Below, piece after piece: positions 2,702 to 58,923 of a stretch of 64,000 nt of DNA. Location: positions 49,444 through 113,443 of the forward strand of contig CALHFG010000018.1 in NCBI GenBank assembly GCA_938029215.1, given 5' to 3'. Positions within the stretch are counted from its first letter, which is position 1. Each line of letters opens with the position of its first letter. The notes beneath the pieces are model-generated. The model saw only the letters and a program-made list of their open reading frames with translations, did not search any database and was not told the origin of the DNA. Position numbers and translations under genes: made by a program. Source of the stretch: an uncultured Acidimicrobiales bacterium (GTDB lineage Bacteria; Actinomycetota; Acidimicrobiia; Acidimicrobiales; SZUA-35).

Positions 2702-3736
2702 CTATATGCGTCTCGGCTCTCTGTCCTCGAGCGTGAAGATGGTATTACGAACCTCGGCTATACAGCTGTCGATCTCGGCGACGGCCGCTGCGCCTGCATC
2801 CTGCAGCCGTTTTGGGTCTGATCCGGCCGCCTGCAGTCGAATGCCGGCAGCGAACAGCCGTTGGATCACACTGTCTTGAAGTCGCCGAGCAATCCGCTCC
2901 CGCTCTTGAGCGAGACCAAGCTGTGCCTCGCGTGCGTTGCGACGCTCCACCTCTCGTGCCATTTCGTGTTGCTGTCTCTTTCGCTCAGCGGTTCGACGGG
3001 CCAGCGCGATCAACGACCCCCGTCCGAACGCGATCCCGTCGACCCGCTCCACAAGAACCTCTACCTCCGTTCGAGGGACTCCCGGCCCATGGTGAATGGC
3101 GTCGTAGGTTACGACGGCCCGCTCCCCGCTGCGGAGTAGTTCGAGCATCTCCAACAACGGCACCGCGCCTGTCGGCTGTGAGACGTCAAGAAAGGACAGT
3201 CCCGAGGACAACTCGACCGAAGGGCGACCGATCTGTTCCTGAGCGGCACGGTTCGTATACCAAAGTCCGAACGTCTCGGAGTCGAACATGAATACCGCCT
3301 CTGCGACCGAGTCGAGCGCTAGACGAATGGAGCGGTCATCGATCTCCTTTGCCCTCCGTAGAGAGATGTCTCGAACAATGGCAAGCACCGAGAACTCCTT
3401 GCCCGTTCCGACCGGACTCAGACTGATTTCGGCTAGGAACTCAGAGCCATCGCTTCGAAGCGCAACCAGGTCGCCCGGTCGTTCGCCCATGAACGCCGCA
3501 TGCGGCTGGTCCTTGTATCGGTCGTGGTGGCCCTGATGGACAGAGCGAAGCCGCTCCGGAACAAGTGCATCCATCGTTACGTCTGCAAACGACTTCGCCG
3601 AGTAGCCGAAAAGCGACGCTGCCGCGGGGTTGGCCCAGTTGATCTTGCCTTCAGTGCCGAAGACGATCATTGCATCGGGAGCCTCAAGAAGATGGGGCAG
3701 CGTTGCGGTCGTCATGGCGTCGGAGCCGGTGAACAA
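2702..3736 (-). CDS. PAS-PAS-DHp protein: truncated HisKA_3 sensor-kinase paralogue without an ATPase (CA) domain and with Gln in place of the phospho-acceptor His
   Basis: 344 aa. PAS1 (DAMIVFG...LVPERLRSVHQGHHDRY...RSDGSEF) and PAS2 are paralogous to those of the 7910-9676 kinase. The H-box reads ERERIARRLQDSVIQRLF, with the Gln287 codon caa at 2876-2878, where the kinase has RLAEDLHDLIIQRLF. The ORF stops just after DHp helix 2, and only 77 nt remain before the next gene. Confidence 0.8.
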   Translation of the reverse strand: MFTGSDAMTTATLPHLLEAPDAMIVFGTEGKINWANPAAASLFGYSAKSFADVTMDALVPERLRSVHQGHHDRYKDQPHAAFMGERPGDLVALRSDGSEFLAEISLSPVGTGKEFSVLAIVRDISLRRAKEIDDRSIRLALDSVAEAVFMFDSETFGLWYTNRAAQEQIGRPSVELSSGLSFLDVSQPTGAVPLLEMLELLRSGERAVVTYDAIHHGPGVPRTEVEVLVERVDGIAFGRGSLIALARRTAERKRQQHEMAREVERRNAREAQLGLAQERERIARRLQDSVIQRLFAAGIRLQAAGSDPKRLQDAGAAAVAEIDSCIAEVRNTIFTLEDREPRRI

Positions 3737-3742
3737 CGTTGA

Positions 3743-4162
3743 TTAGAGGGGTCGGCCCGGGAGGACCCGACCGGTAATCGCGTCGGTCTCGATCCGAAGA
3801 AATCGGCTCTTCACGCCCGCGGCCCAGGGCTCTACCTCGAGGTCATCGGCGAACATAAGATCGTCCAGACGCTCGAGTTCGTGGGCCTGTCCTCTCACCA
3901 CGATGCTCCAACCAAACTTGCGGCGTTCGTCCACGGCGTCGACTTCGAACGCAACGTTGGGGTTAAGCACCGCGGCAGCGAGCTTCAACCCTGGTGCGGT
4001 CTGCAAGTAGATCTCCCGTTCCCACACCTTGTAGTTGACGGGAAAGATGTCCGGTGTGTTGTTGATCACGACCGCTAGGCGCCCTACCGACTTCGCTGGC
4101 AGTAGCTCCCAGCACTCCTCTTCGGTCAGAGGCTCCAGTGATGACTTGAGGAATTCGCTCAT
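3743..4162 (-). CDS. pyridoxamine 5'-phosphate oxidase (PPOX)-like split-barrel flavoprotein family protein
   Basis: 139 aa. LTEEECWELL...GRLAVV...PDIFPVNY...AFEVD...GWSVVVRG pattern typical of the Pyridox_ox_2 family. It lies 6 nt upstream of the truncated sensor on the same strand. Confidence 0.8.
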   Translation of the reverse strand: MSEFLKSSLEPLTEEECWELLPAKSVGRLAVVINNTPDIFPVNYKVWEREIYLQTAPGLKLAAAVLNPNVAFEVDAVDERRKFGWSIVVRGQAHELERLDDLMFADDLEVEPWAAGVKSRFLRIETDAITGRVLPGRPL

Positions 4163-4212: not shown

Positions 4213-4226
4213 GGCGTCGCGATGGA

Positions 4227-4240
4227 GAGACAAAGGTCCC
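4227..4240. promoter_or_regulatory. DosR-box-like palindrome GAGAC-AAAG-GTCCC (9/10 half-site matches)
   Basis: Read directly. It is centred about 70 nt from both divergent start codons (4162 and 4303). Confidence 0.45.
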
Positions 4241-4302
4241 TAGTCCAAAGCCCGTCACGGAGGGACGCTCAATTCAGAGAAGGACAACCAAAGGAGCCGA
4301 CC

Positions 4303-5136
4303 GTGTTCAATCGAATTCTCGTCCCCCTGGACGACACAAATACCTCACTGCGAGCCCTGAAGCCAGCGGAAGCATTCGCAAAAGCCACCGGTGCCGAGCT
4401 CGTGGTCGCGACGGTGCTGTTTGCCGAGGTAATCGATGCCAACGAGCGAGCCGAAGCGCTCAAAGACCGAGTGAAGCGGTATGGCGTCGAGCCCGATCGC
4501 GCCGAAGTCAGGGTGAGCCCAGTTTCGGTTGAGGAAGGCATCGCCGACCTCATCGACGCAGACACGTTGGTCGTGATCGGCAGCGTGGGACACCCTCACA
4601 CCCAGAAGCCATTTGGAAACGTTTCAGAACAGATCATCCATAGTCGCCGTGACGGGCTCAGTGTTGTCGTCGGCCCCAAGGTCGATGTGGACAACTACAC
4701 CTTGGCCGGGCCGGTATTCGCCGCCATCGACCCGGCCGCGCCTTCGGATGAGTTGCTCGCCGCATTTACACGAATTTCCCAGGAACTTGGGATGGCTCCA
4801 TGGCTTGTCTCGGTGGTCCAGGAGATCAAGGTTCCCGCGGGCATCGGCGGTCTCCCCGGCTATGACGTGCCACTCGAAACCAATCAACTCAGGCAGTTAG
4901 CTCACCGAGTGGAGGCCCGAGGGACCGGCACCGTGAACTACGAGGTGCTTCATCACGCCAATGCGGCAAAGGAGGTCAACCGCTTCGCAAAGGACTGGAA
5001 CGCGTCACTCATCGCAGTTGCGACCCGGGAACGCGGCGGCCTCAGCCGACTCGTGTTCGGCAGCGTGGCAATTGACATCATCCGCAAGTCGGCGGCACCG
5101 GTGCTCGCCGTACACACAGACAGGACAAAGAAATGA
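4303..5136 (+). CDS. tandem universal stress protein (2 USP domains)
   Basis: Track ORF 4222-5136 trimmed to GTG 4303, which is preceded by AAGGAG (4291-4296). It begins VFNRILVPLDD..., and both halves carry the USP pattern (...VVIGSVGH..., ...LIAVATRERGGLSRLVFGSVAIDIIRKSAAPVLAV). Confidence 0.85.
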   Translation: MFNRILVPLDDTNTSLRALKPAEAFAKATGAELVVATVLFAEVIDANERAEALKDRVKRYGVEPDRAEVRVSPVSVEEGIADLIDADTLVVIGSVGHPHTQKPFGNVSEQIIHSRRDGLSVVVGPKVDVDNYTLAGPVFAAIDPAAPSDELLAAFTRISQELGMAPWLVSVVQEIKVPAGIGGLPGYDVPLETNQLRQLAHRVEARGTGTVNYEVLHHANAAKEVNRFAKDWNASLIAVATRERGGLSRLVFGSVAIDIIRKSAAPVLAVHTDRTKK

Positions 5137-5603
5137 ACAGAAAGATCGTCGTAGCAGTCGATGACTCGACCCGAGCCAACGCCGTGCTGTCGTGGGCTTT
5201 GGATCACGCCAACCCGACCGATGAAGTTGTCGCTCTCGCGGTTTGGAACCTCGGTTTGGCCGGAGGCTTCGAGAATCCGTTCTCAAGTCTCAATGAAGCC
5301 CAAATCAAGGCCACGACCCGAGTGAACAGCCTGATCGAGCGGGCGACACGAGGCCGATGGGCTGATGGCGAACCCAGTGTGTCAGTTCACGCCGACGTGC
5401 GGCACGGCGACACGGCTACCGAACTCGTGGACGCGTCGGACGGGGCAGACCTCCTGGTGCTTGGGAACTGCCACTACAACAGGCCGGGTCAGTTGGGTTC
5501 GGTTGCCAAAGCGACGCTCTATGGCGCCAAGTGCGCCGTCGTCCTGGTGCCCGTACAGGTGGATGCTGACGCCGAGACTGGCACGATGACGGCGACCATC
5601 TGA
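5133..5603 (+). CDS. universal stress protein
   Basis: 156 aa. KIVVAVDDS...LLVLGNCHYNRPGQLGSVAKATLYGAKCAVVLV. ATGA overlap with the upstream USP gene. Confidence 0.85.
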   Translation: MNRKIVVAVDDSTRANAVLSWALDHANPTDEVVALAVWNLGLAGGFENPFSSLNEAQIKATTRVNSLIERATRGRWADGEPSVSVHADVRHGDTATELVDASDGADLLVLGNCHYNRPGQLGSVAKATLYGAKCAVVLVPVQVDADAETGTMTATI

Positions 5604-7322: not shown

Positions 7323-7751
7323 CTAGGTGATTCGCCGTCCGGTGATCTTGGCGGGCACGATGCGTACCCAGCGATTCTGACCCGGATCCTCTGCCCACGG
7401 CCGGAGCCCAAGGTTCTCCGCCGTCTCGAAACCGGCGTGATCTTCGATTTCCTCGGCTTGCCCCACGACGAGAACGCTCCAGCCGGTGCGACTATCACGG
7501 TCCCACCGATCTACTTCGAACGCAATGTTCTGGTCAGAGGCGACGGCGTGGAGTTTGCGCCCTGCCGAGGTGCGGAACACGATCGTGTCGTCGACGAATC
7601 GATAGTTCACCGGCAAAATATGCTGTTCTCCAGCAAAGCTGAACCCAATTCTTCCTACCGGGGTACGTAAAAGAAGTGACTTGCACTCGCTTACTGTTAG
7701 CTCGCCCAGAGCGGTCGGTCCCGAAGTAGTGGGGGTGGCGGGTACAGCCAT
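7323..7751 (-). CDS. PPOX-like split-barrel flavoprotein family protein
   Basis: Track ORF 7323-7799 trimmed to ATG 7751, which is preceded by AAGGAG. It is a paralogue of 3743-4162 (LTVSECKSLL...GRIGF...HILPVNY...AFEVD...GWSVLVVG). It lies 19 nt upstream of the SulP gene on the same strand. Confidence 0.8.
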   Translation of the reverse strand: MAVPATPTTSGPTALGELTVSECKSLLLRTPVGRIGFSFAGEQHILPVNYRFVDDTIVFRTSAGRKLHAVASDQNIAFEVDRWDRDSRTGWSVLVVGQAEEIEDHAGFETAENLGLRPWAEDPGQNRWVRIVPAKITGRRIT

Positions 7752-7826
7752 GCTGAACTCCTTTGGTTCGCGGGAGAGGCTCTTTCTCCCTAGATCCATC
7801 CTGTTCTGTTCGTTTGTCTCGTTCTA

Positions 7827-7840
7827 GGGTCCTTAGTCCT
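7827..7840. promoter_or_regulatory. DosR-box-like site GGGTC-CTTA-GTCCT (8/10 half-site matches)
   Basis: Read directly in the divergent promoter between the PPOX gene (start 7751) and the sensor kinase (start 7910). Confidence 0.35.
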
Positions 7841-7909: not shown

Positions 7910-9676
7910 GTGGACAACTTTGACGGCACCGAGACCGAACGTGCCGCATGGGCCATGGTGGAAAGCTCCCCCGATGGCATGCTCCTCGCCGATGAACAGG
8001 GTCAGATTCTGCTCGTCAACACCCAAGTTGAAGAACTCTTTGGGTACACACGCGCCGAGCTGCTGGGGCTGAGCATCGAGGTGTTGGTGCCGGAACGGCT
8101 ACGGAAAGTGCATTCCGCGCACCGAACCCGATACCGAGTCGACCCGAAGCCTCGCTCGATGGGCGGAGACCTCGACCTTCGGGCACTCCGCAAAGACGGA
8201 ACAGAGTTCCCGGTCGAAGTGTCACTCAGTCCGCTCCAGACCGGAAGCGAGACCCGTGTGATCGCCACGATTCGTGACGTCACGTTGCGGTATGAAGCCG
8301 AGGCCGAGTCGCACGCCGTGCTTCACACCATGAACGCCACTCGCGATGGCGTATTCATGTTCGACCCCGACACTTTGGCCTTTACCTATGTAAACGAAGG
8401 TGCCGTGCGGCAACTCGGCTACACGAGGGACGAACTCCTCGGCATGACCCCACTTCACATCAAACCGATGTTCGATGAAGGGTCGTTTCGAGAGCTGTTG
8501 CGACCCCTTGTTTCCGACGAAGTGAAATCTCATGTCTTTACGACAAGTCATCGACGCAAAAGCGGTGAAGACGTCCCTGTCGAGATCATCCTCGAATACC
8601 CAGAGGCAGTAGATGCGGGTCGCAGTCGCCGGCTGGTGGCCATCGTCCGAGACATCTCAGAGCGAGTCCAGGCCGATCTGGCGTTGGCCACGAGCGAGGA
8701 AGCATTCCGCACCGCGTTTGACTCCGCCCCGGTCGGCATGGCGCTGGTGGACTTCAATGATCCGGTACGACGCCCGATCACCCGGGTGAATCAAGCTCTT
8801 TGTGAGTACTTGGGTTATGAAGCCGACCAGCTTTTGACGATGGGGTTCGCAGAACTCACCCATCCCGATGATGCCGAAGTCAGCGATCAACAAGCGCTTC
8901 GAGCCGTCGATGGAAAAGCGTCCCAGTTTGCGGTAGAGAAGCGATACCTGCACGCCGATGGACATGCCGTTTGGGCGTGGGTCCACTCGGCGGTGCTCGA
9001 TAACGGCATCGACTCCCCTACCAGCGTGCTGGTACACGTTGCGGACATGACCGAAGCACGCCGAGCTCAGCAGGATGAGGCTCGTCTTCGGATCCTGGAG
9101 GACCGAGAGCGGCTCGCTGAAGACCTCCATGATCTCATCATCCAACGACTGTTTGCAGCAGGAATGGGTCTGCAGTCGCTGCAGACCCGCGTTACCGACC
9201 CGATCACCGCCGACCGTCTGGCCCGTACCGTCGACGAGTTGGACCACACCATCGCGGATCTCCGGAACGCCATTTTCCGCCTGCACTCTCCGTTTGAATC
9301 AAGCGTGCGGCACGACATCGAAGAGGCGGTCCACAATGCCAATCGCTCACTTGGGTTCACGCCTCAGCTCACCTTTGAAGGCGACCCCAGTCAGATCGCA
9401 GCTCCGGTAGCCGAACAACTGATGCCAGTTCTGTCAGAGGCACTCATGAATATTGCCAAACATGCTGATGCAACCGCCGCCGCGGTATCGCTCGCAATCG
9501 ACGAGCGGGTGGAGCTCACAATCCGCGACAACGGCTGCGGGTTCGTCGAGCAGCGTACGGGAGGTCATGGGATCAATAACATGCGCTCCCGAGCCGAGCG
9601 ACTTGGTGGCACTGTCGCCCTCGAGTCACCCGCCGACGGCGGCACACAGTTGGTGTGGACCGCCGTCAACCGCTAG
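7910..9676 (+). CDS. cytoplasmic sensor histidine kinase: PAS(FixL-like)-PAS-PAS-HisKA_3-HATPase_c
   Basis: 588 aa. GTG start lies 8 nt after GGAGGA. No TM segment. H-box is RLAEDLHDLIIQRLF (His407 codon 9128-9130). N-box is EALMNIAKHA, with G-boxes DNGCGF and GHGINNM. PAS1 aligns without gaps to the B. japonicum FixL haem-PAS as I recall it, and His68 (8111-8113) falls on the proximal His. Confidence 0.9.
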   Translation: MDNFDGTETERAAWAMVESSPDGMLLADEQGQILLVNTQVEELFGYTRAELLGLSIEVLVPERLRKVHSAHRTRYRVDPKPRSMGGDLDLRALRKDGTEFPVEVSLSPLQTGSETRVIATIRDVTLRYEAEAESHAVLHTMNATRDGVFMFDPDTLAFTYVNEGAVRQLGYTRDELLGMTPLHIKPMFDEGSFRELLRPLVSDEVKSHVFTTSHRRKSGEDVPVEIILEYPEAVDAGRSRRLVAIVRDISERVQADLALATSEEAFRTAFDSAPVGMALVDFNDPVRRPITRVNQALCEYLGYEADQLLTMGFAELTHPDDAEVSDQQALRAVDGKASQFAVEKRYLHADGHAVWAWVHSAVLDNGIDSPTSVLVHVADMTEARRAQQDEARLRILEDRERLAEDLHDLIIQRLFAAGMGLQSLQTRVTDPITADRLARTVDELDHTIADLRNAIFRLHSPFESSVRHDIEEAVHNANRSLGFTPQLTFEGDPSQIAAPVAEQLMPVLSEALMNIAKHADATAAAVSLAIDERVELTIRDNGCGFVEQRTGGHGINNMRSRAERLGGTVALESPADGGTQLVWTAVNR

Positions 9677-9682
9677 AGGCGC

Positions 9683-10132
9683 TCAGTCGGCGTCTTCCTT
9701 CACGACCAAGACCGAGCAGTGAGCATGATGAATAACCTTGGTGGAGACGCTTCCGTGTAGCAGCCGCTTCGCCGGGCCTTCGCCTCGAGATCCGACGACG
9801 ATCAAATCAGCTCCCGTCGCATCGGCAACGTCGAGAATCCCGTCCGCTGGATCGGCACCCATCATGTGAGTAACGGGGTCAACGTCAGCAAGCTTGCAGA
9901 TACTGATCGCTTTGGTGATGCGTTCCTCGCCGAAGTAGTCGGCGTGTAACTGCGGCCAAAACTCCGATGGCAGCGCCTTCTTCAGCTCATAGAGCTGTCC
10001 CGGGGTCAGCGGACGGATGGCCGTAACGATATGGAGCTTCGCACCCTGTTCGGCGGCGATCCGAGCAGCTGCGGTAACCGCCTTTTCGGCGTTTGTTGAG
10101 CCGTCGGTTGCGGCGACGATTGTCTTGAACAT
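9683..10132 (-). CDS. universal stress protein
   Basis: 149 aa. MFKTIVAATDGS...DLIVVGSRGEGPAKRLLHGSVSTKVIHHAHCSVLVV (G-x2-G-x9-G-S ATP-binding type). Confidence 0.9.
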   Translation of the reverse strand: MFKTIVAATDGSTNAEKAVTAAARIAAEQGAKLHIVTAIRPLTPGQLYELKKALPSEFWPQLHADYFGEERITKAISICKLADVDPVTHMMGADPADGILDVADATGADLIVVGSRGEGPAKRLLHGSVSTKVIHHAHCSVLVVKEDAD

Positions 10133-10191: not shown

Positions 10192-10205
10192 GGGCCCAAG
10201 GTCCC
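10192..10205. promoter_or_regulatory. DosR-box-like palindrome GGGCC-CAAG-GTCCC (9/10 half-site matches)
   Basis: Read directly in the divergent promoter between the USP gene (start 10132) and the HPF-like gene (start 10333). Confidence 0.45.
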
Positions 10206-10332: not shown

Positions 10333-11754
10333 ATGCCGGATGGAAGAGTTCACCGCATCGACCCCGACACCGAGTCGGTATACATCATTCGCCGAGGTCG
10401 CACCTACCGAGCACCCCTGAACGAAGTCGAGGCTGCAGCCCGGGTTCCGAGCGCTCGCGTGCAGTTCGGTCTGCGCAGGCGCAACGGCGAAGAAAGCGCC
10501 GAAGGCGTGACCTTGCGTCGAGGCACGCGCACCAACAAGCGTCACCGCCGGTTCGGCGACCTCACCGGAGCCGCCCGTCCCGGCGCCAAGACTCGAACCC
10601 GGACCCAGCAAGACTTCGGAATCGATGTCACGACACAGCCGCGCCGAGTCGCGGAGGCATGGGTGAACGCTATGAATACCGCGGACTTCGACGGCGCAGC
10701 CTCGCTGTACTTGCCCGAGGCCAAAGTTCACACCGATGCCGGCACCATTTCTGGACGCCGCAAGGTTCGGGCCGCCCTCGAAGACTGTGGATGGGAAGTT
10801 GGGCAATCTGATGTCACGTTCCACGTCGACGATCGCTTCGTGGACATCCATCACGGCGGTTCGGCCCACGAGCTGGATTCTTCGCTCATGATCAGCAAAG
10901 GTGCGATCGTTGAGCACTGGTTCGGACCCAGCTATGAAAGCGGTGCCGAGAAAGAGGACGATCAGCCTGTCATCGAGGTTGTAAACCGAACCGGTGTCAG
11001 CGCCGTAGCGGTCACGAATGCCGAGGAACGAATGTCGACGGTGATCGCCGGCATTCCGGAGAAGGTTTTGTCGGCGCGCATCAAATTGGCACTCGCTCCG
11101 AAACCACGGTCCATGCTTGCCGCCCACGTCGAAACAACGTTCGAACTGGAGAACGGCGGTGTCATTCGCGTCCACGCCGGCGCAACAACGCTTTCCGAGG
11201 CGATCGACCAGGCGCTCTCAAAGTTCGCCGCAAAGCTGGAACGCACACGCGATCGAGATCGACACAACCCGACGGGCGTAGCTCCGAACCCCAACCAATG
11301 GCGTCACGCCAACCGGCCAAGCGACGGGCTTCCCTATTTCGATCGACCTCCGGAAGAACGGGAAATCGTTCGCCACAAGACAGTCGCGGCAGCGCAGATG
11401 ACGATCGAGGAGGCCGCATGGGACGCCGATCTCATGGCGTTTGACTTCTTCCTCTTCGAGGAGATCTCCACCGGTCATGATTGCCTCCTCGAACGCAATG
11501 ACGACGCATACGTCGTGTACGGCATGGGACTGGGAGTCCAGACCATCCCCAGCGCGATGGGAGATCTCAACACCAGCGATGCGACCGTTCCCACAGAACG
11601 GCTGAGTGCTGCGATCGAGATACTCCATGGTTCCGGAGCGCCGTACCACTTCTTCATTAACGAAGCGACCGGCAGAGGGAACGTGATCTATCGACGACTA
11701 GACGGCCACTACGGCTTGATCACGCCTCGGGTCAGCGTCACTCGTACCGACTGA
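10333..11754 (+). CDS. ribosome hibernation factor of the Rv0079/RafH type (HPF N-domain plus two tandem HPF C-terminal-like domains), with an extra ~200-aa N-terminal region (small beta-barrel, basic linker, NTF2/SnoaL-like domain)
   Basis: 473 aa. ATG is preceded by GAAGGAGAG. Residues 212-306 (VIEVVNRTG...ARIKLAL...VETTFEL...IRVHAGATTLSEAIDQALSKFAAKLER) fit the S30AE/YfiA fold pattern. Residues 343-396 (EIVRHKTV..MTIEEAAWDADLMAFDFFLFEEISTGHDCLLER) and 420-466 (PYHFFINEATGRGNVIYRRLDGHYGLITP) are two HPF-CTD-like repeats. Residues 103-197 (AEAWVNAMNTADFDGAASLY...GAIVEHWF) look NTF2/SnoaL-like. Confidence 0.85.
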   Translation: MPDGRVHRIDPDTESVYIIRRGRTYRAPLNEVEAAARVPSARVQFGLRRRNGEESAEGVTLRRGTRTNKRHRRFGDLTGAARPGAKTRTRTQQDFGIDVTTQPRRVAEAWVNAMNTADFDGAASLYLPEAKVHTDAGTISGRRKVRAALEDCGWEVGQSDVTFHVDDRFVDIHHGGSAHELDSSLMISKGAIVEHWFGPSYESGAEKEDDQPVIEVVNRTGVSAVAVTNAEERMSTVIAGIPEKVLSARIKLALAPKPRSMLAAHVETTFELENGGVIRVHAGATTLSEAIDQALSKFAAKLERTRDRDRHNPTGVAPNPNQWRHANRPSDGLPYFDRPPEEREIVRHKTVAAAQMTIEEAAWDADLMAFDFFLFEEISTGHDCLLERNDDAYVVYGMGLGVQTIPSAMGDLNTSDATVPTERLSAAIEILHGSGAPYHFFINEATGRGNVIYRRLDGHYGLITPRVSVTRTD

Positions 11755-11781: not shown

Positions 11782-12504
11782 TCACTCGTACCGTTTGCGA
11801 GCCCGTTCATCGAGACGGGCCGCAAATGCGGCGGCCTCGGTTCGGCGGGTCATCCCCAGCTTCGCCAGGAGATTCGACACGTAATTCTTGACCGTCTTTT
11901 CGGCAAGGAACATCTCATCAGCGATCTGACGGTTAGACCTTCCCTCACCGATGAGGTCGAAGATCCGGTGTTCTTGCGGGGTCAACGTGGAGACCAGGCC
12001 TTCTTCGCTGTCCTTGAGCCGTCCCATCGCCATCCGAACCGTGGCCGCATCGAGCAATGCAGCGCCCGAAGAGACTTTTCTGATCGACTCGACCAAATCA
12101 TTGCTCCGAATTTGCTTCAGCACATATCCAGCGGCCCCCGCGAACGAGGCATCGACTATGGCGTGGTCATCTGCAAACGACGTGAGAATCAAGCAGGCGA
12201 TCTCGGGAAACTGTGAGCGAATATCGCGGCAGACCTCGATCCCGTTGCCATCTTCGAGTCGCACATCGAGGACTGCGACATCGGGCTGGCACCGCTCGAC
12301 CTCGCGCAATGCCTCGGTGGCTCCGGCTGCCTCGCCAACAACGACGATGTCGGGTTCGGCCTCGAGGAGGTCGGCAACTCCGCGGCGAACAATCTCGTGG
12401 TCGTCGAGAAGAAAGACCCGGATCGAGTCGGTCGAGCTAGTGGGTGTCACGTCGTCTGCGCTCATCATCTTTTCCATTGTCTCGACAACTGCCATAGCTG
12501 CCAT
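11782..12504 (-). CDS. dosR: DevR/DosR-like NarL/LuxR-family response regulator
   Basis: Receiver domain plus LuxR HTH. Long blocks nearly identical to M. tuberculosis DevR as I remember it: [13 protein letters not shown] vs [34 protein letters not shown] vs [27 protein letters not shown], and [25 protein letters not shown] vs [25 protein letters not shown]. The start is uncertain: ATG 12504 is chosen, with alternatives at 12495, 12477, 12468, 12465 or 12567. Confidence 0.9.
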   Translation of the reverse strand: [240 protein letters not shown]

Positions 12505-12531
12505 GGTGCCCACCGATGGTAGGCGCCGGTA

Positions 12532-12545
12532 GGGACCAACGTCCC
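12532..12545. promoter_or_regulatory. perfect DosR-box-type palindrome GGGAC-CAAC-GTCCC (10/10 half-site matches)
   Basis: Read directly. It overlaps the stop codon of the upstream tandem-USP gene (12545-12547) and is centred about 34 nt upstream of the chosen dosR-like ATG (12504). Confidence 0.55.
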
Positions 12546-13426
12546 TATCCGAGCTCCCTTGCAACATCAGGTAGCACGACCGTCACCAACGACGGCTGGT
12601 GGGTGAGAGCGGTGGCGACCGACCCGAGCAGTAGATAGGCGACACCACGAGTACCCCGGGCACCGAGAACGAGAGCGTCAGCACCCTGGGCCACCTTTGG
12701 CAGTTCCGATCGAGGATCACCCGGAACAACCACGATCTCCACCAACTGTTCCGCTTCGTCGTGGGACGCCACCGACGCGACGATCTGACGGACCTCTTCG
12801 GTTGTCGATCGATGAAGGTCTGACTCAACCGATCGGCCGGCGCTATAGGAATAGGCCAGCGAAGCAAAGGTCGATGCCGCTACGACGGTGCCGTCCTTGG
12901 CTACGCGGTCCAACGCCCATCGAAGGGCGCGTTTTGAATTCGGCGATCCGTCGATGCCTACTACTAGTCTCCGAAGCGGTCCACGAACACCAGCGCTCGA
13001 GGGCACGATCGCAACCGCTGACTGCGCGTGCTTTACGCAGTGGGACCCCGTTGACCCGAGCAAGGCGCTCGCGAGCCCACCGCGCCCGCGACACCCGACC
13101 ACGAGCAGATCGGCGGTCATCGAGGCTTCAACGAGCATCTGTCCCGCGTAGTCGGCCGCAACGACATGAGAAGACAACAAGCCAGGGTCCACGGCCTCGA
13201 TGACTGCAGCAGCACGCCGCTCTGCGACCTTTCGGAATATCTCAAGATCGATGGGCTGGGGCGGCGGACCCAGCCCATCGAATGTGGGGCCGATGCTGTA
13301 GGCAGTGGACACGCAGACGGTGCCGAGCTGTTTCTCAGGATCCGTGGCCCACTCGAGGGCAAGTCGAGACTCATCGGAACCATCCACGCCTACGACCACG
13401 GTGCACTTACGGTCCGGTATGTCCAT
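12545..13426 (-). CDS. tandem universal stress protein (2 USP domains)
   Basis: 293 aa. VVVGVDGSDES...LLVVGCRGRGGLASALLGSTGSHCVKHAQSAVAIV, then LVVGIDGSPNS...ALVLGARGTRGVAYLLLGSVATALTHQPSLVTVV. It lies directly upstream of the dosR-like gene, like Rv3134c-devR in M. tuberculosis. Confidence 0.85.
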   Translation of the reverse strand: MDIPDRKCTVVVGVDGSDESRLALEWATDPEKQLGTVCVSTAYSIGPTFDGLGPPPQPIDLEIFRKVAERRAAAVIEAVDPGLLSSHVVAADYAGQMLVEASMTADLLVVGCRGRGGLASALLGSTGSHCVKHAQSAVAIVPSSAGVRGPLRRLVVGIDGSPNSKRALRWALDRVAKDGTVVAASTFASLAYSYSAGRSVESDLHRSTTEEVRQIVASVASHDEAEQLVEIVVVPGDPRSELPKVAQGADALVLGARGTRGVAYLLLGSVATALTHQPSLVTVVLPDVARELG

Positions 13427-13885: not shown

Positions 13886-13899
13886 GAGTCCTTGGTCCC
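13886..13899. promoter_or_regulatory. DosR-box-like site GAGTC-CTTG-GTCCC (8/10 half-site matches)
   Basis: Read directly in the divergent promoter between the CMD-USP-dosR-like operon (start 13825) and the USP gene (start 13989). Confidence 0.35.
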
Positions 13900-13988: not shown

Positions 13989-14813
13989 ATGACACATGCA
14001 ACCGCGGGAAGCCCCCCATCACTCATTGGTGATCGAACAATCTTCGAGATCGCCCTGCCGGTCACGTTCACATCAGCAGACGACCGAGTCCGCACGTTCG
14101 CCATCGAGCTATGCCGAAGGTGGAGCATTCCCCTCCGGCTGATCTACGTCTCTGACTCGATTGAGCCGTCGATACCGCAGCTCGAAGATCTGGCCGCGCA
14201 TATCAGGCGGCGCCACGAGGCGCTGACGGTAAAGACCAGCCATGTCTATGGTCACGACGCCGCGGTCGGGATTTGTTCCACCGTGTTCCCTCGATCCTTG
14301 GTTCTGATGCCCACCGACCACGCTGACGAGTGGAAGATGAAGGGATCGGTGGCCGAGATCGTCGTGATGTCGGCCGGGGTTCCCGTGCTCCTGTTTGGGC
14401 CCAACGTCGGCACGTTCCGACCCGGCGCAGACATCGTTGTTGGTCTCGATGGTTCAGCCTCTGCCGAGGCAGTGCTGCCCGCCGCCCTCGGGCTGGCACA
14501 GGCATTCGACGCCCAACTCTGGCTTGTTCAAGTCGTTCCGGTTGGCGTTGACGACGAAATCAACGTGGACATCGCAACCTACATCCAGGATCAGGCGGCG
14601 GTGATCGAGATCCCTCATCATCGAACCGGCTGGGAACTCATTCACAGCAACAACCCTGTGTCGGCGCTCGCCTCGTTCGCCGAGGCCCGCAATGCATCGA
14701 TGATCCTTGCCGGTGCTCGCGGTCGTACCGATCCTCACCGTCAATCGATGGGGAGCATAAGCATGGGTTTGGTGTCGACCGGCACCGTGCCGGTGCTGAC
14801 CCTTGCGGTGTAG
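13989..14813 (+). CDS. tandem USP-domain protein (first domain divergent)
   Basis: 274 aa. The second half is clearly USP (IVVGLDGSASAE...MILAGARGRTDPHRQSMGSISMGLVSTGTVPVLTL). The first half has the USP layout but weak motifs. Confidence 0.75.
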   Translation: MTHATAGSPPSLIGDRTIFEIALPVTFTSADDRVRTFAIELCRRWSIPLRLIYVSDSIEPSIPQLEDLAAHIRRRHEALTVKTSHVYGHDAAVGICSTVFPRSLVLMPTDHADEWKMKGSVAEIVVMSAGVPVLLFGPNVGTFRPGADIVVGLDGSASAEAVLPAALGLAQAFDAQLWLVQVVPVGVDDEINVDIATYIQDQAAVIEIPHHRTGWELIHSNNPVSALASFAEARNASMILAGARGRTDPHRQSMGSISMGLVSTGTVPVLTLAV

Positions 14814-56409: not shown

Positions 56410-57173
56410 ACTTCAACACCACCTACTACCAACTCGAACTACGACGCCTCCTGCGGGACCGTGTCACCATCTTCTTCACCGTGGCTCTACCGGCCCTCAT
56501 GTACTTCCTCTTCGGGGCCTCACCCGACTACGGATCCGAGCCCATACGTGACGGCAACGTCGCGATGTGGGTCATGATCGCCATGGCTGCCTACGGAGCG
56601 GTCAGCGCAACGACAGGGATCGGCGGATCAATCGCCATCGAACAAATGCAAGGCTGGACCCGCCAGCTGGGCCTCACGCCACTGCAGGAAAGCGACTTCA
56701 TCAAGGTCAAGGTTGCGACCGCTGTCACGGTCGCAGCCGCTCCGATATCGATCGTGTATGCCATCGGTTTCTTGACCGGCGCCGAAGCACCGATGTACGT
56801 CTGGGCAACGTCAGCCTTCCTTCTCATTCTAGGAGCGGCGACGTTTGCGCTCTATGGTCTGGGCTTTGGGTTGGCCTTTCGTTCCGAGGCCGCCGTGAGC
56901 GCAGCAGGAGGTTCGCTGGTCGTCATGTCATTCTTCGGAAACGTGTTCTTCCCGCTGACCGGCTGGCAGCTCACCATGGCGAAGTTCACCCCGCTCTATG
57001 GGTATGTGTCTCTGGCCCGCAGGACGCTCACCGGTGGGGCGACCATCGATCCCGAAACGAGTGAACTCATCGCCGAGCCGTTGTGGCAAACGCTCGCCAA
57101 CGTTGGGTTCTGGTCCTTCGCCTTCGCCGCCATCTGCATTGTGCTCGTGCGCAAGAGTCGGGTTCGTCAGTGA
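56406..57173 (+). CDS. ABC-2 type transporter permease
   Basis: 255 aa, 6 TM. ATGA overlap with the ATPase gene. Confidence 0.85.
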   Translation: MNFNTTYYQLELRRLLRDRVTIFFTVALPALMYFLFGASPDYGSEPIRDGNVAMWVMIAMAAYGAVSATTGIGGSIAIEQMQGWTRQLGLTPLQESDFIKVKVATAVTVAAAPISIVYAIGFLTGAEAPMYVWATSAFLLILGAATFALYGLGFGLAFRSEAAVSAAGGSLVVMSFFGNVFFPLTGWQLTMAKFTPLYGYVSLARRTLTGGATIDPETSELIAEPLWQTLANVGFWSFAFAAICIVLVRKSRVRQ

Positions 57174-58315
57174 GCGAGAGCGCTCTAAAGCAGGAGGGCT
57201 TCTGGATGGCAAACATCTGGTTGCTCTTTCTGCTTTTTCCGATCCTCACTGTTGTCGACGACGAGTCCCTCGCCATCGGGACGAGAGTGGCGACGATCGG
57301 CCTACTGCTGTTGTTTGCCGCATTTCACATTAAGGGCTATCTGGTACTGGTCCAGCGAGAGCTCGGCGAGGTGCGTGAGCCGAATCGGTCGCCACTCGGC
57401 TCGTTCGTCGATCCCCTTGGAAGCAAACTTTGGTTCGTCGGACTGCTGATCACTGCGGTGACGGCCTTTGCTCTTGCCGCCTGGGCAATCCTCGGCGTGC
57501 TCCCTTTCATCATCTCGTTCGCAATGTTCCACTTCTCCTGGCCCACGGCGATCACCACCTTCCTCGCCTCGCTGACGGTGTCCATACTTGGCCCGCTGTC
57601 AGCTGGTCGACTGAATGACTTTTGGTTCTTTGCCATCATCGTGGTCAGCGCCGGTGGGGCCATGATGTTGACCCGGCTCAATTTGGAACAGCAGGAGCGA
57701 AGCTCACTTCTTCGAACCGAACTGATCGTGAGCAACGAACGAGAACGCGTGGCCCGCGATGTTCACGATGTACTGGGACACTCGCTCACCGCAATCATCT
57801 TGAAAACCCAGGTGGTGGAGCAGATCCTCTCGGCGCCGGAACCGACGGGGGCCGCAATCGATGAGGCACGACGCCAACTTGCCGAAATGCAGGACGTCAG
57901 CCGGGGCGCTCTGGCTGAGATTCGCACCACGGTCGGCGGTCTGCGGGCAACCACGCTCTCGAACGAACTTGCGGCCGCTCGTGCGGTGCTAGCCGACGCT
58001 GATGTCACCCTCACCGTCCAAGGCGACATCAACAGTGTGCCTCACGGCGACACCCTGGGTTGGGTGGTACGGGAGGCGGTCACCAATATCGTCCGACACG
58101 CCAGAGCGGACACCTGTCATATTCGGCTGGCCGATGAGGGCACCCTGCTCGAGATATCCGACGACGGCCGCGGACGGCAGAACGGCGCCGAAGGAAACGG
58201 AATCCGCGGAGTGCGCGAACGTATGGCATCTTCAGGGCTTGCGCTGCATGTGGAGGACGGGCCCGAACGTGGCACGCTGCTTCGGGTGACCAGGGCAGAT
58301 GGGACAGACCGATGA
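57170..58315 (+). CDS. membrane sensor histidine kinase (HisKA_3, DesK/LiaS-like)
   Basis: About 5 TM, then RERVARDVHDVLGHSL, REAVTNIVRHA, DDGRG and GNGIRGVRERM. The start is GTG 57170 (GTGA overlap) or ATG 57206, which follows AGGAGG. Confidence 0.85.
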   Translation: MSESALKQEGFWMANIWLLFLLFPILTVVDDESLAIGTRVATIGLLLLFAAFHIKGYLVLVQRELGEVREPNRSPLGSFVDPLGSKLWFVGLLITAVTAFALAAWAILGVLPFIISFAMFHFSWPTAITTFLASLTVSILGPLSAGRLNDFWFFAIIVVSAGGAMMLTRLNLEQQERSSLLRTELIVSNERERVARDVHDVLGHSLTAIILKTQVVEQILSAPEPTGAAIDEARRQLAEMQDVSRGALAEIRTTVGGLRATTLSNELAAARAVLADADVTLTVQGDINSVPHGDTLGWVVREAVTNIVRHARADTCHIRLADEGTLLEISDDGRGRQNGAEGNGIRGVRERMASSGLALHVEDGPERGTLLRVTRADGTDR

Positions 58316-58923
58316 CAGCGATCCGAGTTCTCCTGGCTGATGATCAAGCTCTCGTGCGTGGCGCCCTGGCCGCCCTGCTTAACCTCGAGCCCGATATCGA
58401 GGTGGTCGCCGAACTGAGCCGGGGAGATGAGGTACTCGACGAGATTCGAGCGACACCCGTGGATGTGGCGTTGCTCGATGTCGAGATGCCTGGCCTGGAC
58501 GGCATCGCTGTCACTGAACTTCTACGCGATAACGCACCAGGAGTACGATCGCTGATCGTCACCACCTTCGGCCGGCCAGGCTTTCTCCGGCGGGCACTGG
58601 ATGCGGGGGCCTCAGGGTTTGTTGTCAAGGACACGCCGGCCTCCGAACTCGCTGACGCCGTTCGACGGGTACACCAGGGCTTGCGGGTCGTTGACCCCGA
58701 ACTTGCAACGGAATCGCTGATCGAGGGAATGAACCCGCTGAGCGACCGGGAACGCGAGGCTCTCCAATTCGCTCTGAAGGGCGATCCCGTTGCCGATATC
58801 GCCAAGAAGATGAGTCTCTCGGTGGGCACGGTTCGAAACTACCTCTCGACCGCCGCCGGCAAGACGGGCACATCTTCCAGCCATCAGGCAGCTGTCGTGG
58901 CCCGTGATCGAGGGTGGCTCTAA
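58312..58923 (+). CDS. NarL/LuxR family response regulator
   Basis: 203 aa. VLLADDQALVR...DVALLDVEMPGLDG. HTH is IAKKMSLSVGTVRNYLS. Confidence 0.92.
   Translation: MTAIRVLLADDQALVRGALAALLNLEPDIEVVAELSRGDEVLDEIRATPVDVALLDVEMPGLDGIAVTELLRDNAPGVRSLIVTTFGRPGFLRRALDAGASGFVVKDTPASELADAVRRVHQGLRVVDPELATESLIEGMNPLSDREREALQFALKGDPVADIAKKMSLSVGTVRNYLSTAAGKTGTSSSHQAAVVARDRGWL

Follow-up and report, generated by a model that had tools for sequence, protein, structure and literature searches.

The DosS/DosT-DosR system is the textbook dormancy switch of Mycobacterium tuberculosis, which answers hypoxia, NO and CO, and a haem-GAF domain is regarded as its sensor. DevS (DosS) and DosT carry their GAF domains in tandem, the haem lying in GAF-A, and have a HisKA_3 kinase core that acts on the response regulator DevR (DosR). 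In FixL of Bradyrhizobium japonicum and Sinorhizobium meliloti the haem sits in a PAS domain, joined to a histidine kinase with a HisKA (PF00512) core and FixJ as its partner; this haem is five-coordinate and Arg220 stabilises the bound O2. The haem-PAS protein EcDOS/DosP of E. coli has a six-coordinate His/Met ferrous haem, from which the Met is displaced by O2, and a c-di-GMP phosphodiesterase as its output. NreB/NreC of Staphylococcus consists of a cytoplasmic PAS-HisKA_3 oxygen-related sensor kinase and a NarL-family partner, the PAS domain binding an Fe-S cluster through four Cys residues. FixL haem-PAS kinases, the haem-GAF DosS/DosT-DosR system and PAS-HisKA_3 sensors such as NreB are all already known, and module swapping is common in bacterial signalling. 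In this paper we looked at a stretch of 64,000 nucleotides (the window) from an uncultured Acidimicrobiales bacterium (SZUA-35; assembly GCA_938029215.1, contig CALHFG010000018.1, positions 49,444-113,443 of the forward strand), which encodes a three-PAS sensor histidine kinase close to a DosR-like response regulator. We give a probability of about 0.7 to the reading that this kinase is a soluble haem-based sensor with a His/Met haem, which feeds the DevR/DosR-like regulator and a DosR-type programme.

The described protein that comes closest to the first PAS domain of this kinase (PAS1) is FG214 of Fimbriimonas ginsengisoli (PDB 10jx/10jy), a one-component transcription factor in which a helix-turn-helix is joined to a PAS domain and which undergoes a monomer-dimer switch. 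FG214 is red on purification and contains haem b, and haem binding is lost in its H156I variant (bioRxiv 10.64898/2026.03.15.711900). In the crystal structure at 1.47 Å the proximal ligand is His156 and the main ferric distal ligand is His175, while in the dithionite-reduced crystal Met172 ligates the iron and a His156-Met172 pair is formed (bioRxiv 10.64898/2026.03.15.711900). In FG214, a haem-b protein, redox state and ligands drive a switch on the distal side; in the window the related domain heads a three-PAS histidine kinase instead of a one-component regulator.

The kinase open reading frame has a GTG start with a ribosome-binding site, GGAGGA, 6 nt 5' of it, and lies in a window of about 60% G+C. 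The protein was found unchanged on contigs of at least three independent samples, so that it is not an assembly artefact. Its close homologues come from metagenome-assembled genomes of Acidimicrobiales, Ilumatobacter and Acidimicrobiia; a homologue from a cultured isolate, Rhabdothermincola sediminis, is P0105. Pfam recognises three PAS domains (among the matches PAS_9 at E 1e-36), a HisKA_3 domain at residues 399-460 (E 6.5e-10) and HATPase_c at residues 502-582 (E 1.9e-11); the sub-threshold matches PAS_11 and Diguanyl_cycl_sensor add no information. The phospho-acceptor His407 (codon 9128-9130) lies within DLHDLIIQ, the HisKA_3 phosphatase motif DxxxQ is retained, and the N, G1 and G2 boxes of the ATP-binding domain are all intact. 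Against the PDB, the catalytic ATP-binding (CA) domain is best matched by 8sbm (E 1.1e-12), DevS (3zxo; 1.3e-12) and DosT (3zxq; 1.4e-11), and more weakly by VraS (1.8e-7) and a CA-only construct of DesK (3.6e-4). No GAF domain was found in the kinase by Pfam at E≤1, and the DevS/DosT GAF structures in the PDB were unmatched too. A preliminary description of this DNA had proposed a NarL-type (HisKA_3) kinase with a sensor fold other than that of DosS/DosT; both parts hold, the first in the Pfam assignment and in a CA domain that is closest to DevS/DosT among solved structures, the second in the haem-PAS sequence and fold that stand in register in a kinase with no GAF domain. A hybrid of haem-GAF and haem-PAS was also considered for the homologues P0010 and P0105, which do have GAF domains, and was rejected as both fail to match the DevS/DosT GAF structures.

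The preliminary description had called PAS1 a FixL-like haem-PAS domain. The best single-sequence match of PAS1 in the PDB is FG214 (10jx; E 6.4e-21, 40% identity, gapless), and with phmmer residues 16-132 of PAS1 correspond to chain positions 9-125 of B. japonicum FixL (BjFixL) without any gap (E 3.2e-17, 38 of 117 residues identical; FixL residue numbers are counted along the PDB chain sequence, taking chain position 1 as residue 140). The gapless alignment to FixL had been proposed over about 105 residues; the strings given for it agree with the FixL sequence in the PDB and the alignment actually spans 117 residues. The placement of His68 on the proximal ligand His200 of FixL is borne out by single-sequence, profile and BLASTP alignments, FixL Arg206 is indeed conserved, as Arg74, and the position of FixL Arg220 is occupied by a Leu as described (Leu88, in phmmer and in BLASTP to DosP). 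The BLASTP alignment to DosP of E. coli K-12 (NC_000913.3) is again gapless and pairs the proximal His with His68 and the position of Arg97 with Leu88, DosP numbering in the current RefSeq record being 8 below the classical one. A proper profile, built from 23 diverse PAS1 domains, leaves the gapless register to FixL unshifted, and its best 14 distinct sequences in the PDB (E 4e-28 to 5.5e-16) are all haem-PAS: FG214 (4e-28), six BjFixL variants or constructs (4e-24), RmFixL (7e-20), four DosP (2e-19) and two EcDOS (2e-16). The first non-haem PAS in this search is a LOV domain at E 6e-11, which leaves a 10^5-fold gap in E value after the haem-PAS set. The agreement goes well past anything that chance would give. 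An AlphaFold2 model of PAS1 made from the family alignment has a mean confidence (pLDDT) of 90 and the canonical order of PAS strands and helices, and its top Foldseek matches in the PDB are FixL (8js5/8js6) and FG214 (10jx) with a probability of 1.0, at template modelling (TM) scores of 0.7-0.8 against the FixL folds. Taken from these alignments, PAS1 very probably binds haem through His68.

Other cofactors were considered for PAS1. No Cys is present in its residues 1-135, which excludes both an Fe-S cluster of the NreB type and LOV adduct photochemistry, and the FAD-PAS proteins MmoS (3ewk) and NifL (2gj3) match far more weakly than the haem-PAS proteins. It is also quite improbable that PAS1 binds no haem at all, with the conserved His and Met serving another ligand or the structure and the kinase sensing otherwise through PAS1-3. 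PAS domains are promiscuous, and Pfam gives generic PAS families only; moreover, the PAS1-type domain is found in 25,785 protein clusters at E≤1e-30, some proteins have it 4-13 times in tandem, a number uncommon among haem domains, and FG214 is the sole characterised member of the clade. Yet every one of the best matches among solved structures is a haem-PAS protein whose axial His is in register, FG214, at 40% identity, is a haem-b protein which needs the aligned His for haem binding, and the invariant Arg82 stands at a propionate-binding position. Arg82 aligns with FixL His214 and with an Arg in EcDOS, residues which bind a haem propionate.

The question that follows is which residue, if any, lies on the other side of the iron. 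The gapless alignment of FG214 and PAS1 pairs His156 with His68, His159 with His71, Arg160 with Arg72, Met172 with Met84 and His175 with Asp87; the motif HxxHR...R.MG is common to both, and both have Leu at the position of FixL Arg220. Judged by sequence, the closest characterised relative of PAS1 is FG214 and not FixL, a refinement of the FixL-like assignment, in which the haem-PAS type and the proximal His in register stand. Across a family set of 196 domains, of which 97 are the first PAS domain of a HisKA_3 kinase and 99 are tandem copies in multi-PAS proteins, His68, Arg72, Arg82 and Met84 are invariant (196/196). Among 131 family domains from the genomes of about 20 phyla the His is present in all, the Met in 125 and Arg82 in 130, and of the 282 domains that reach 100 bits or more with the profile, in a library of 1.84 billion proteins, 253 have both His and Met. 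Position 87 in the family is Gly, Asp or Glu and never His; the FG214-type distal His175 is therefore without a counterpart, and, with Asp87 in its place, only Met84 is available in the PAS1 sequence as a protein distal ligand. Position 88 is Leu in 86 of the 97 HisKA_3-type members and Arg in 4, and in these four the Arg could mark a different handling of O2.

We lean, by a small measure, towards Met84 as a ligand of the iron, by analogy with FG214. As the invariant Met84 is aligned with the FG214 ligand Met172, a six-coordinate His/Met switch is favoured, and for the ferrous state at least, six-coordination of the haem by His68 and Met84 appears more likely than a five-coordinate O2 sensor of the FixL kind. 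The five-coordinate alternative, to which we give a low but real probability, is that PAS1 holds its haem via His68 only, Met84 being a mere hydrophobic residue of the pocket in the place of FixL Ile216, and that O2 binding itself turns the kinase off, with a weaker stabilisation of O2 since Arg220 is replaced by Leu. The gapless alignment to FixL, the FixL structures at the head of the Foldseek list, the Ile of FixL at the Met84 position and the distal Val104 and Leu106, which match FixL Leu236 and Ile238, all fit with such a pocket, and both pocket types exist, since the PAS1-like domains of a large sister group combine the His with Ile or Val at the Met84 position. But a Met that is kept in every one of the 196 close family domains and in 90% of the domains at or above 100 bits is more conserved than a hydrophobic filler would have to be, in FG214, the closer relative, the aligned Met172 is a ligand of the iron, and the O2-stabilising Arg is absent from PAS1. 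Loss of the distal Arg in FixL and EcDOS is reported to impair O2 binding or discrimination. With regard to the signal, PAS1 may sense redox state just as well as gas.

FixL differs from the kinase of the window in its output as well, having HisKA and FixJ where the latter has HisKA_3 and a DevR-like partner; the NCBIfam model sens_FixL_Rhizob reaches 75.9 bits with the kinase, against a cut-off of 850, and covers PAS1 only. NreB/NreC is like the system of the window in its cytoplasmic PAS-HisKA_3 kinase and its NarL-family partner, and differs in the Cys-bound cluster of its PAS domain. Across phyla the PAS1-type domain is joined to many different outputs. The His/Met form is also found in kinases with 4-6 tandem copies (P0008, P0011, P0013-P0018, P0020 and others). 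Giant proteins of 3,000-5,500 aa (in P0240-P0388) carry at least 13 PAS1-like repeats in which the axial His is kept and the Met is replaced by Ile or Val, as in FixL; if all of the repeats bind haem, these repeat proteins would be multi-haem PAS arrays.

The second part of our reading concerns the partner of the kinase. The preliminary description had placed a DosR-like regulator near it, and this was found to be a homologue of DevR at a distance of 2.1 kb: over its full length the regulator matches M. tuberculosis DevR (3c3w) at E 3.5e-68, the next best PDB match being VraR at 7e-42. The recognition stretch EKTVKNYVS is identical in the regulator and in DevR, and contains the DNA-contacting residues Lys179, Lys182 and Asn183 of DevR. 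The true start of the regulator is probably near 12471-12504, the longest-ORF start at 12567 being probably too far upstream. In the Acidimicrobiia loci L001, L002, L011, L014 and L033 a DosR-like regulator, 61-88% identical to that of the window, is encoded within 5 kb of the PAS-HisKA_3 kinase, and L084 is a sixth such locus, with a regulator that is 68% identical. L001 is syntenic with the window, having the paralogue described below, both PPOX-family genes, the kinase, a universal stress protein (USP) gene, the ribosome hibernation factor (HPF) fusion and the regulator. From this conserved co-location we infer phosphoryl transfer to the DosR-like regulator, and hold that the kinase probably pairs with its neighbour.

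It is unlikely, in our view, that the kinase is a haem sensor which is not cognate to this regulator, whether because a GAF-type DevS/DosT is encoded elsewhere or because the kinase simply belongs to the DosR regulon and acts on a different regulator. A DosR-box-like site 5' of the kinase would suit a regulon member, and some paralogues of the family (in L085) have no DosR-like regulator nearby. On the other hand, no other intact HisKA_3 kinase lies beside the regulator, and the only other two-component pair of the 64 kb (57083-58923, forward strand), a HisKA_3 kinase with a NarL-family regulator, is a self-contained separate operon whose regulator is just 32% identical to the DosR-like one. 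The co-location in six Acidimicrobiia loci, the likeness of the CA domain to DevS/DosT and the automatic JGI annotation, which calls several of the homologues DevS, further argue for the neighbouring regulator as partner. The contig L085 (1.08 Mb) carries two PAS1-type HisKA_3 kinases, one of them with added GAF domains, near HSP20 and nitroreductase genes, which are also typical gene types of the DosR regulon.

The resemblance to the mycobacterial system extends to the surroundings of the two genes. The DosR-regulon type of gene content (USPs, PPOX-like and HPF-like genes) is present around the kinase, and is comparable to Rv0079/Rv0080/Rv3134c. A tandem-USP gene is followed directly by the regulator gene, which resembles the Rv3134c-devR order with its internal promoter. 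The same DNA-contact residues, a USP-rich cluster and candidate GGGAC-N4-GTCCC boxes are common to both. The differences lie in the sensor (three PAS domains with a predicted haem-PAS, and no GAF, in place of the tandem GAF) and in the gene arrangement, as the kinase gene does not follow that of the regulator in one transcript. The perfect box at 12532 overlaps the stop codon of the tandem-USP gene 12545-13426, and near-perfect cores are found at 7827, 10192, 4227, 11766 and 13886. The M. tuberculosis 20-mer consensus TTSGGGACTWWAGTCCCSAA has its best match in the window at 12529-12548, where the sequence reads GTAGGGACCAACGTCCCTAT. In the related loci the top-scoring site likewise lies 5' of the regulator (L001 at 15623; L014, a triple site at 7352-7412) or 5' of the kinase (L011 at 4692; L002 at 9682). 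The intergenic DNA of the cluster, 927 bp in all, has 7 of the 47 window matches with at least 8 of the 10 core positions, one of them perfect and six near-perfect, against an expectation of 0.8 (binomial P 1.7e-5). No sigma-70 promoter was found in a scan around the kinase.

Several points weigh against this reading and should be taken together. The positional enrichment of the boxes partly depends on the chosen gene starts, strict longest ORFs leaving only 4 sites intergenic. A scan of the window with the M. tuberculosis 20-mer consensus gave no overall excess over Markov-shuffled sequence, and in a window scan with the 14-mer, one mismatch being allowed, 7 sites were found where 4.7 are expected, with no window-wide excess; only the position of the box-like sites is informative, not their overall number. 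Kinase and regulator do not form one operon, their genes being on opposite strands at a distance of 2.1 kb, and a GAF-type DevS might sit elsewhere in a genome that is viewed here through 64 kb. Haem binding is read from an identity of 32-40% together with conserved ligands, and the AlphaFold2 model carries no cofactor. The main ferric distal ligand of FG214, His175, is Asp87 in PAS1, and the crystal in which Met172 ligates the iron was of a truncated protein and soaked in dithionite, so that Met ligation may not carry over to PAS1. EcDOS is a precedent for PAS1 as a six-coordinate His/Met haem with its proximal His in register, but a loose one, since Met95 of EcDOS aligns two residues beyond Met84; it also has Arg97 where PAS1 has Leu.

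A mechanism that fits these data would start with haem b bound by PAS1 via His68 on the F-alpha helix, with Arg82, Arg72 and His71 holding the propionates as homology suggests. Met84 on the FG loop would ligate the iron, at least in the ferrous form and with no distal Arg of the FixL/EcDOS type, so that the haem would be six-coordinate with a His/Met pair, like that of FG214. Displacement of Met84, whether by a diatomic ligand (O2, NO or CO) or by a change in the oxidation of the iron, may then move the FG loop. This change could be relayed via PAS2, PAS3 and a helical linker to HisKA_3, where it would shift the balance between autophosphorylation of His407 and the phosphatase activity that depends on DxxxQ; if FixL and DosS/DosT are taken as a guide, the kinase would be expected to be on when the haem is ferrous and unliganded. 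The phosphoryl group would pass to the DevR/DosR-like regulator 2.1 kb away, as its conserved co-location suggests, and the regulator, with its DevR-like contact residues, would bind the GGGAC-N4-GTCCC palindromes 5' of itself, of the kinase/PPOX pair and of the USP/HPF genes. Binding to these boxes may switch on a DosR-type programme against hypoxia or redox stress.

The features of the locus are collected in Table 1.

Table 1. Genes, domains, codons and box-like sites around the kinase, in window positions.
Feature	Positions	Strand	Remarks
Paralogue with PAS1-like, PAS2-like and HisKA_3 domains, without ATPase domain	2702..3736	-	Gln in place of the phospho-His
Second PPOX-family (Pyridox_ox_2) gene	3743..4162	-	6 bp upstream of the paralogue
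Two USP genes	4222..5603	+	4222-5136 (tandem USP) and 5133-5603
Pyridox_ox_2 (PPOX-family) gene	7323..7799	-	Divergent from the kinase; pairing also in related loci
DosR-box-like palindrome GGGTCCTTAGTCCT	7827..7840		Divergent PPOX/kinase promoter, about 70 bp 5' of the kinase start
Sensor histidine kinase gene	7910..9676	+	588 aa, PAS1-PAS2-PAS3-HisKA_3-HATPase_c, without transmembrane or GAF domain
PAS1 (residues 14-133)	7949..8308	+	Predicted to bind haem b; FG214/FixL/EcDOS kind
His68 codon CAT	8111..8113	+	Predicted proximal haem ligand; equivalent to FixL His200, FG214 His156 and the EcDOS proximal His (His77)
Met84 codon ATG	8159..8161	+	Candidate distal haem ligand; equivalent to FG214 Met172; R-x-M-G motif, 16 residues past the axial His
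Leu88 codon CTC	8171..8173	+	At the O2-stabilising Arg site (FixL Arg220, EcDOS Arg97)
PAS2 (about residues 140-255)	8327..8674	+	No His at the haem-ligand position, as read from the sequence
PAS3 (about residues 266-385)	8705..9064	+	PAS_3/PAS_8 type; some homologues have GAF instead
HisKA_3 dimerisation/phosphotransfer domain	9104..9289	+	Pfam; motif reading
HATPase_c catalytic domain	9413..9655	+	N box (514), G1 (540), G2 (551)
Universal stress protein gene	9683..10132	-	Convergent with the kinase
DosR-box-like palindrome GGGCCCAAGGTCCC	10192..10205		Between USP and HPF-like genes (divergent promoter)
SnoaL-like and ribosome hibernation factor (S30AE) fusion	10333..11754	+	473 aa
DevR/DosR-like response regulator	11782..12567	-	Receiver and GerE helix-turn-helix
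Perfect DosR-box core GGGACCAACGTCCC	12532..12545		Just 5' of the likely start of the regulator
Tandem-USP gene	12545..13426	-	Directly 5' of the regulator
Further tandem-USP gene	13989..14813	+	Box-like site GAGTCCTTGGTCCC at 13886 upstream

From 2.7 to 15.5 kb the cluster contains six USP genes, two Pyridox_ox_2 genes, the SnoaL/HPF fusion, a SulP transporter, a CMD-family gene and an FMN reductase. The SnoaL/S30AE fusion has both N- and C-terminal S30AE parts, is encoded between kinase and regulator with a DosR-box-like site in front of it, and is conserved in L001 (56% identity) and L047 (39%). A PPOX-family gene is found beside each of the two haem-PAS genes of the window, and PPOX homologues adjoin a PAS-HisKA_3 kinase in six related loci (L001, L002, L009, L011, L014 and L049), one of them from Streptomyces. 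This suggests a conserved functional link between PPOX-family genes and haem-PAS kinases.

Another question that is raised by the locus is the role of the second haem-PAS gene, the paralogue. Its PAS1-like domain keeps the His and has a Met at +16, and in its HisKA_3 domain the sequence RRLQDSVIQ has Gln replacing the phospho-His with DxxxQ kept. The related proteins P0122-P0124 (57-59% identical to the paralogue) share the same end point and the same Gln, and the dimerisation/phosphotransfer domain is their most conserved part, so that the paralogue looks like a real kinase-dead protein. It is possibly a phosphatase-only sensor or a brake that acts by heterodimerisation. One further proposal, which we consider speculative and rather doubtful, is that the DosR regulon of Acidimicrobiia is run by two His/Met haem-PAS proteins in place of haem-GAF kinases, namely a bifunctional kinase and a conserved kinase-dead partner which would act as a signal-gated phosphatase or heterodimerising brake, and that both belong to a very large and largely unrecognised cross-phylum clade of six-coordinate haem-PAS modules. 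If the reading of the paralogue is true, such a two-sensor logic would parallel DosS/DosT from different parts.

In a full-text literature search that did not cover subscription journals, no haem-PAS module with a DevS-type HisKA_3 core and DosR was found described. If, in another actinobacterial class, a haem-PAS domain feeds the same kinase core and the same regulator, regulon and sensor would be modules that can be separated, and the locus would offer a natural comparison of the ways in which two unrelated haem folds act on one HisKA_3 kinase. Given the predicted ligation by His and Met and the lack of a distal Arg, the selectivity for ligands or redox state would be expected to differ. The analysis also links the newly characterised FG214 with a very large family of many output types, which may be a candidate pool of parts for redox or gas biosensors.

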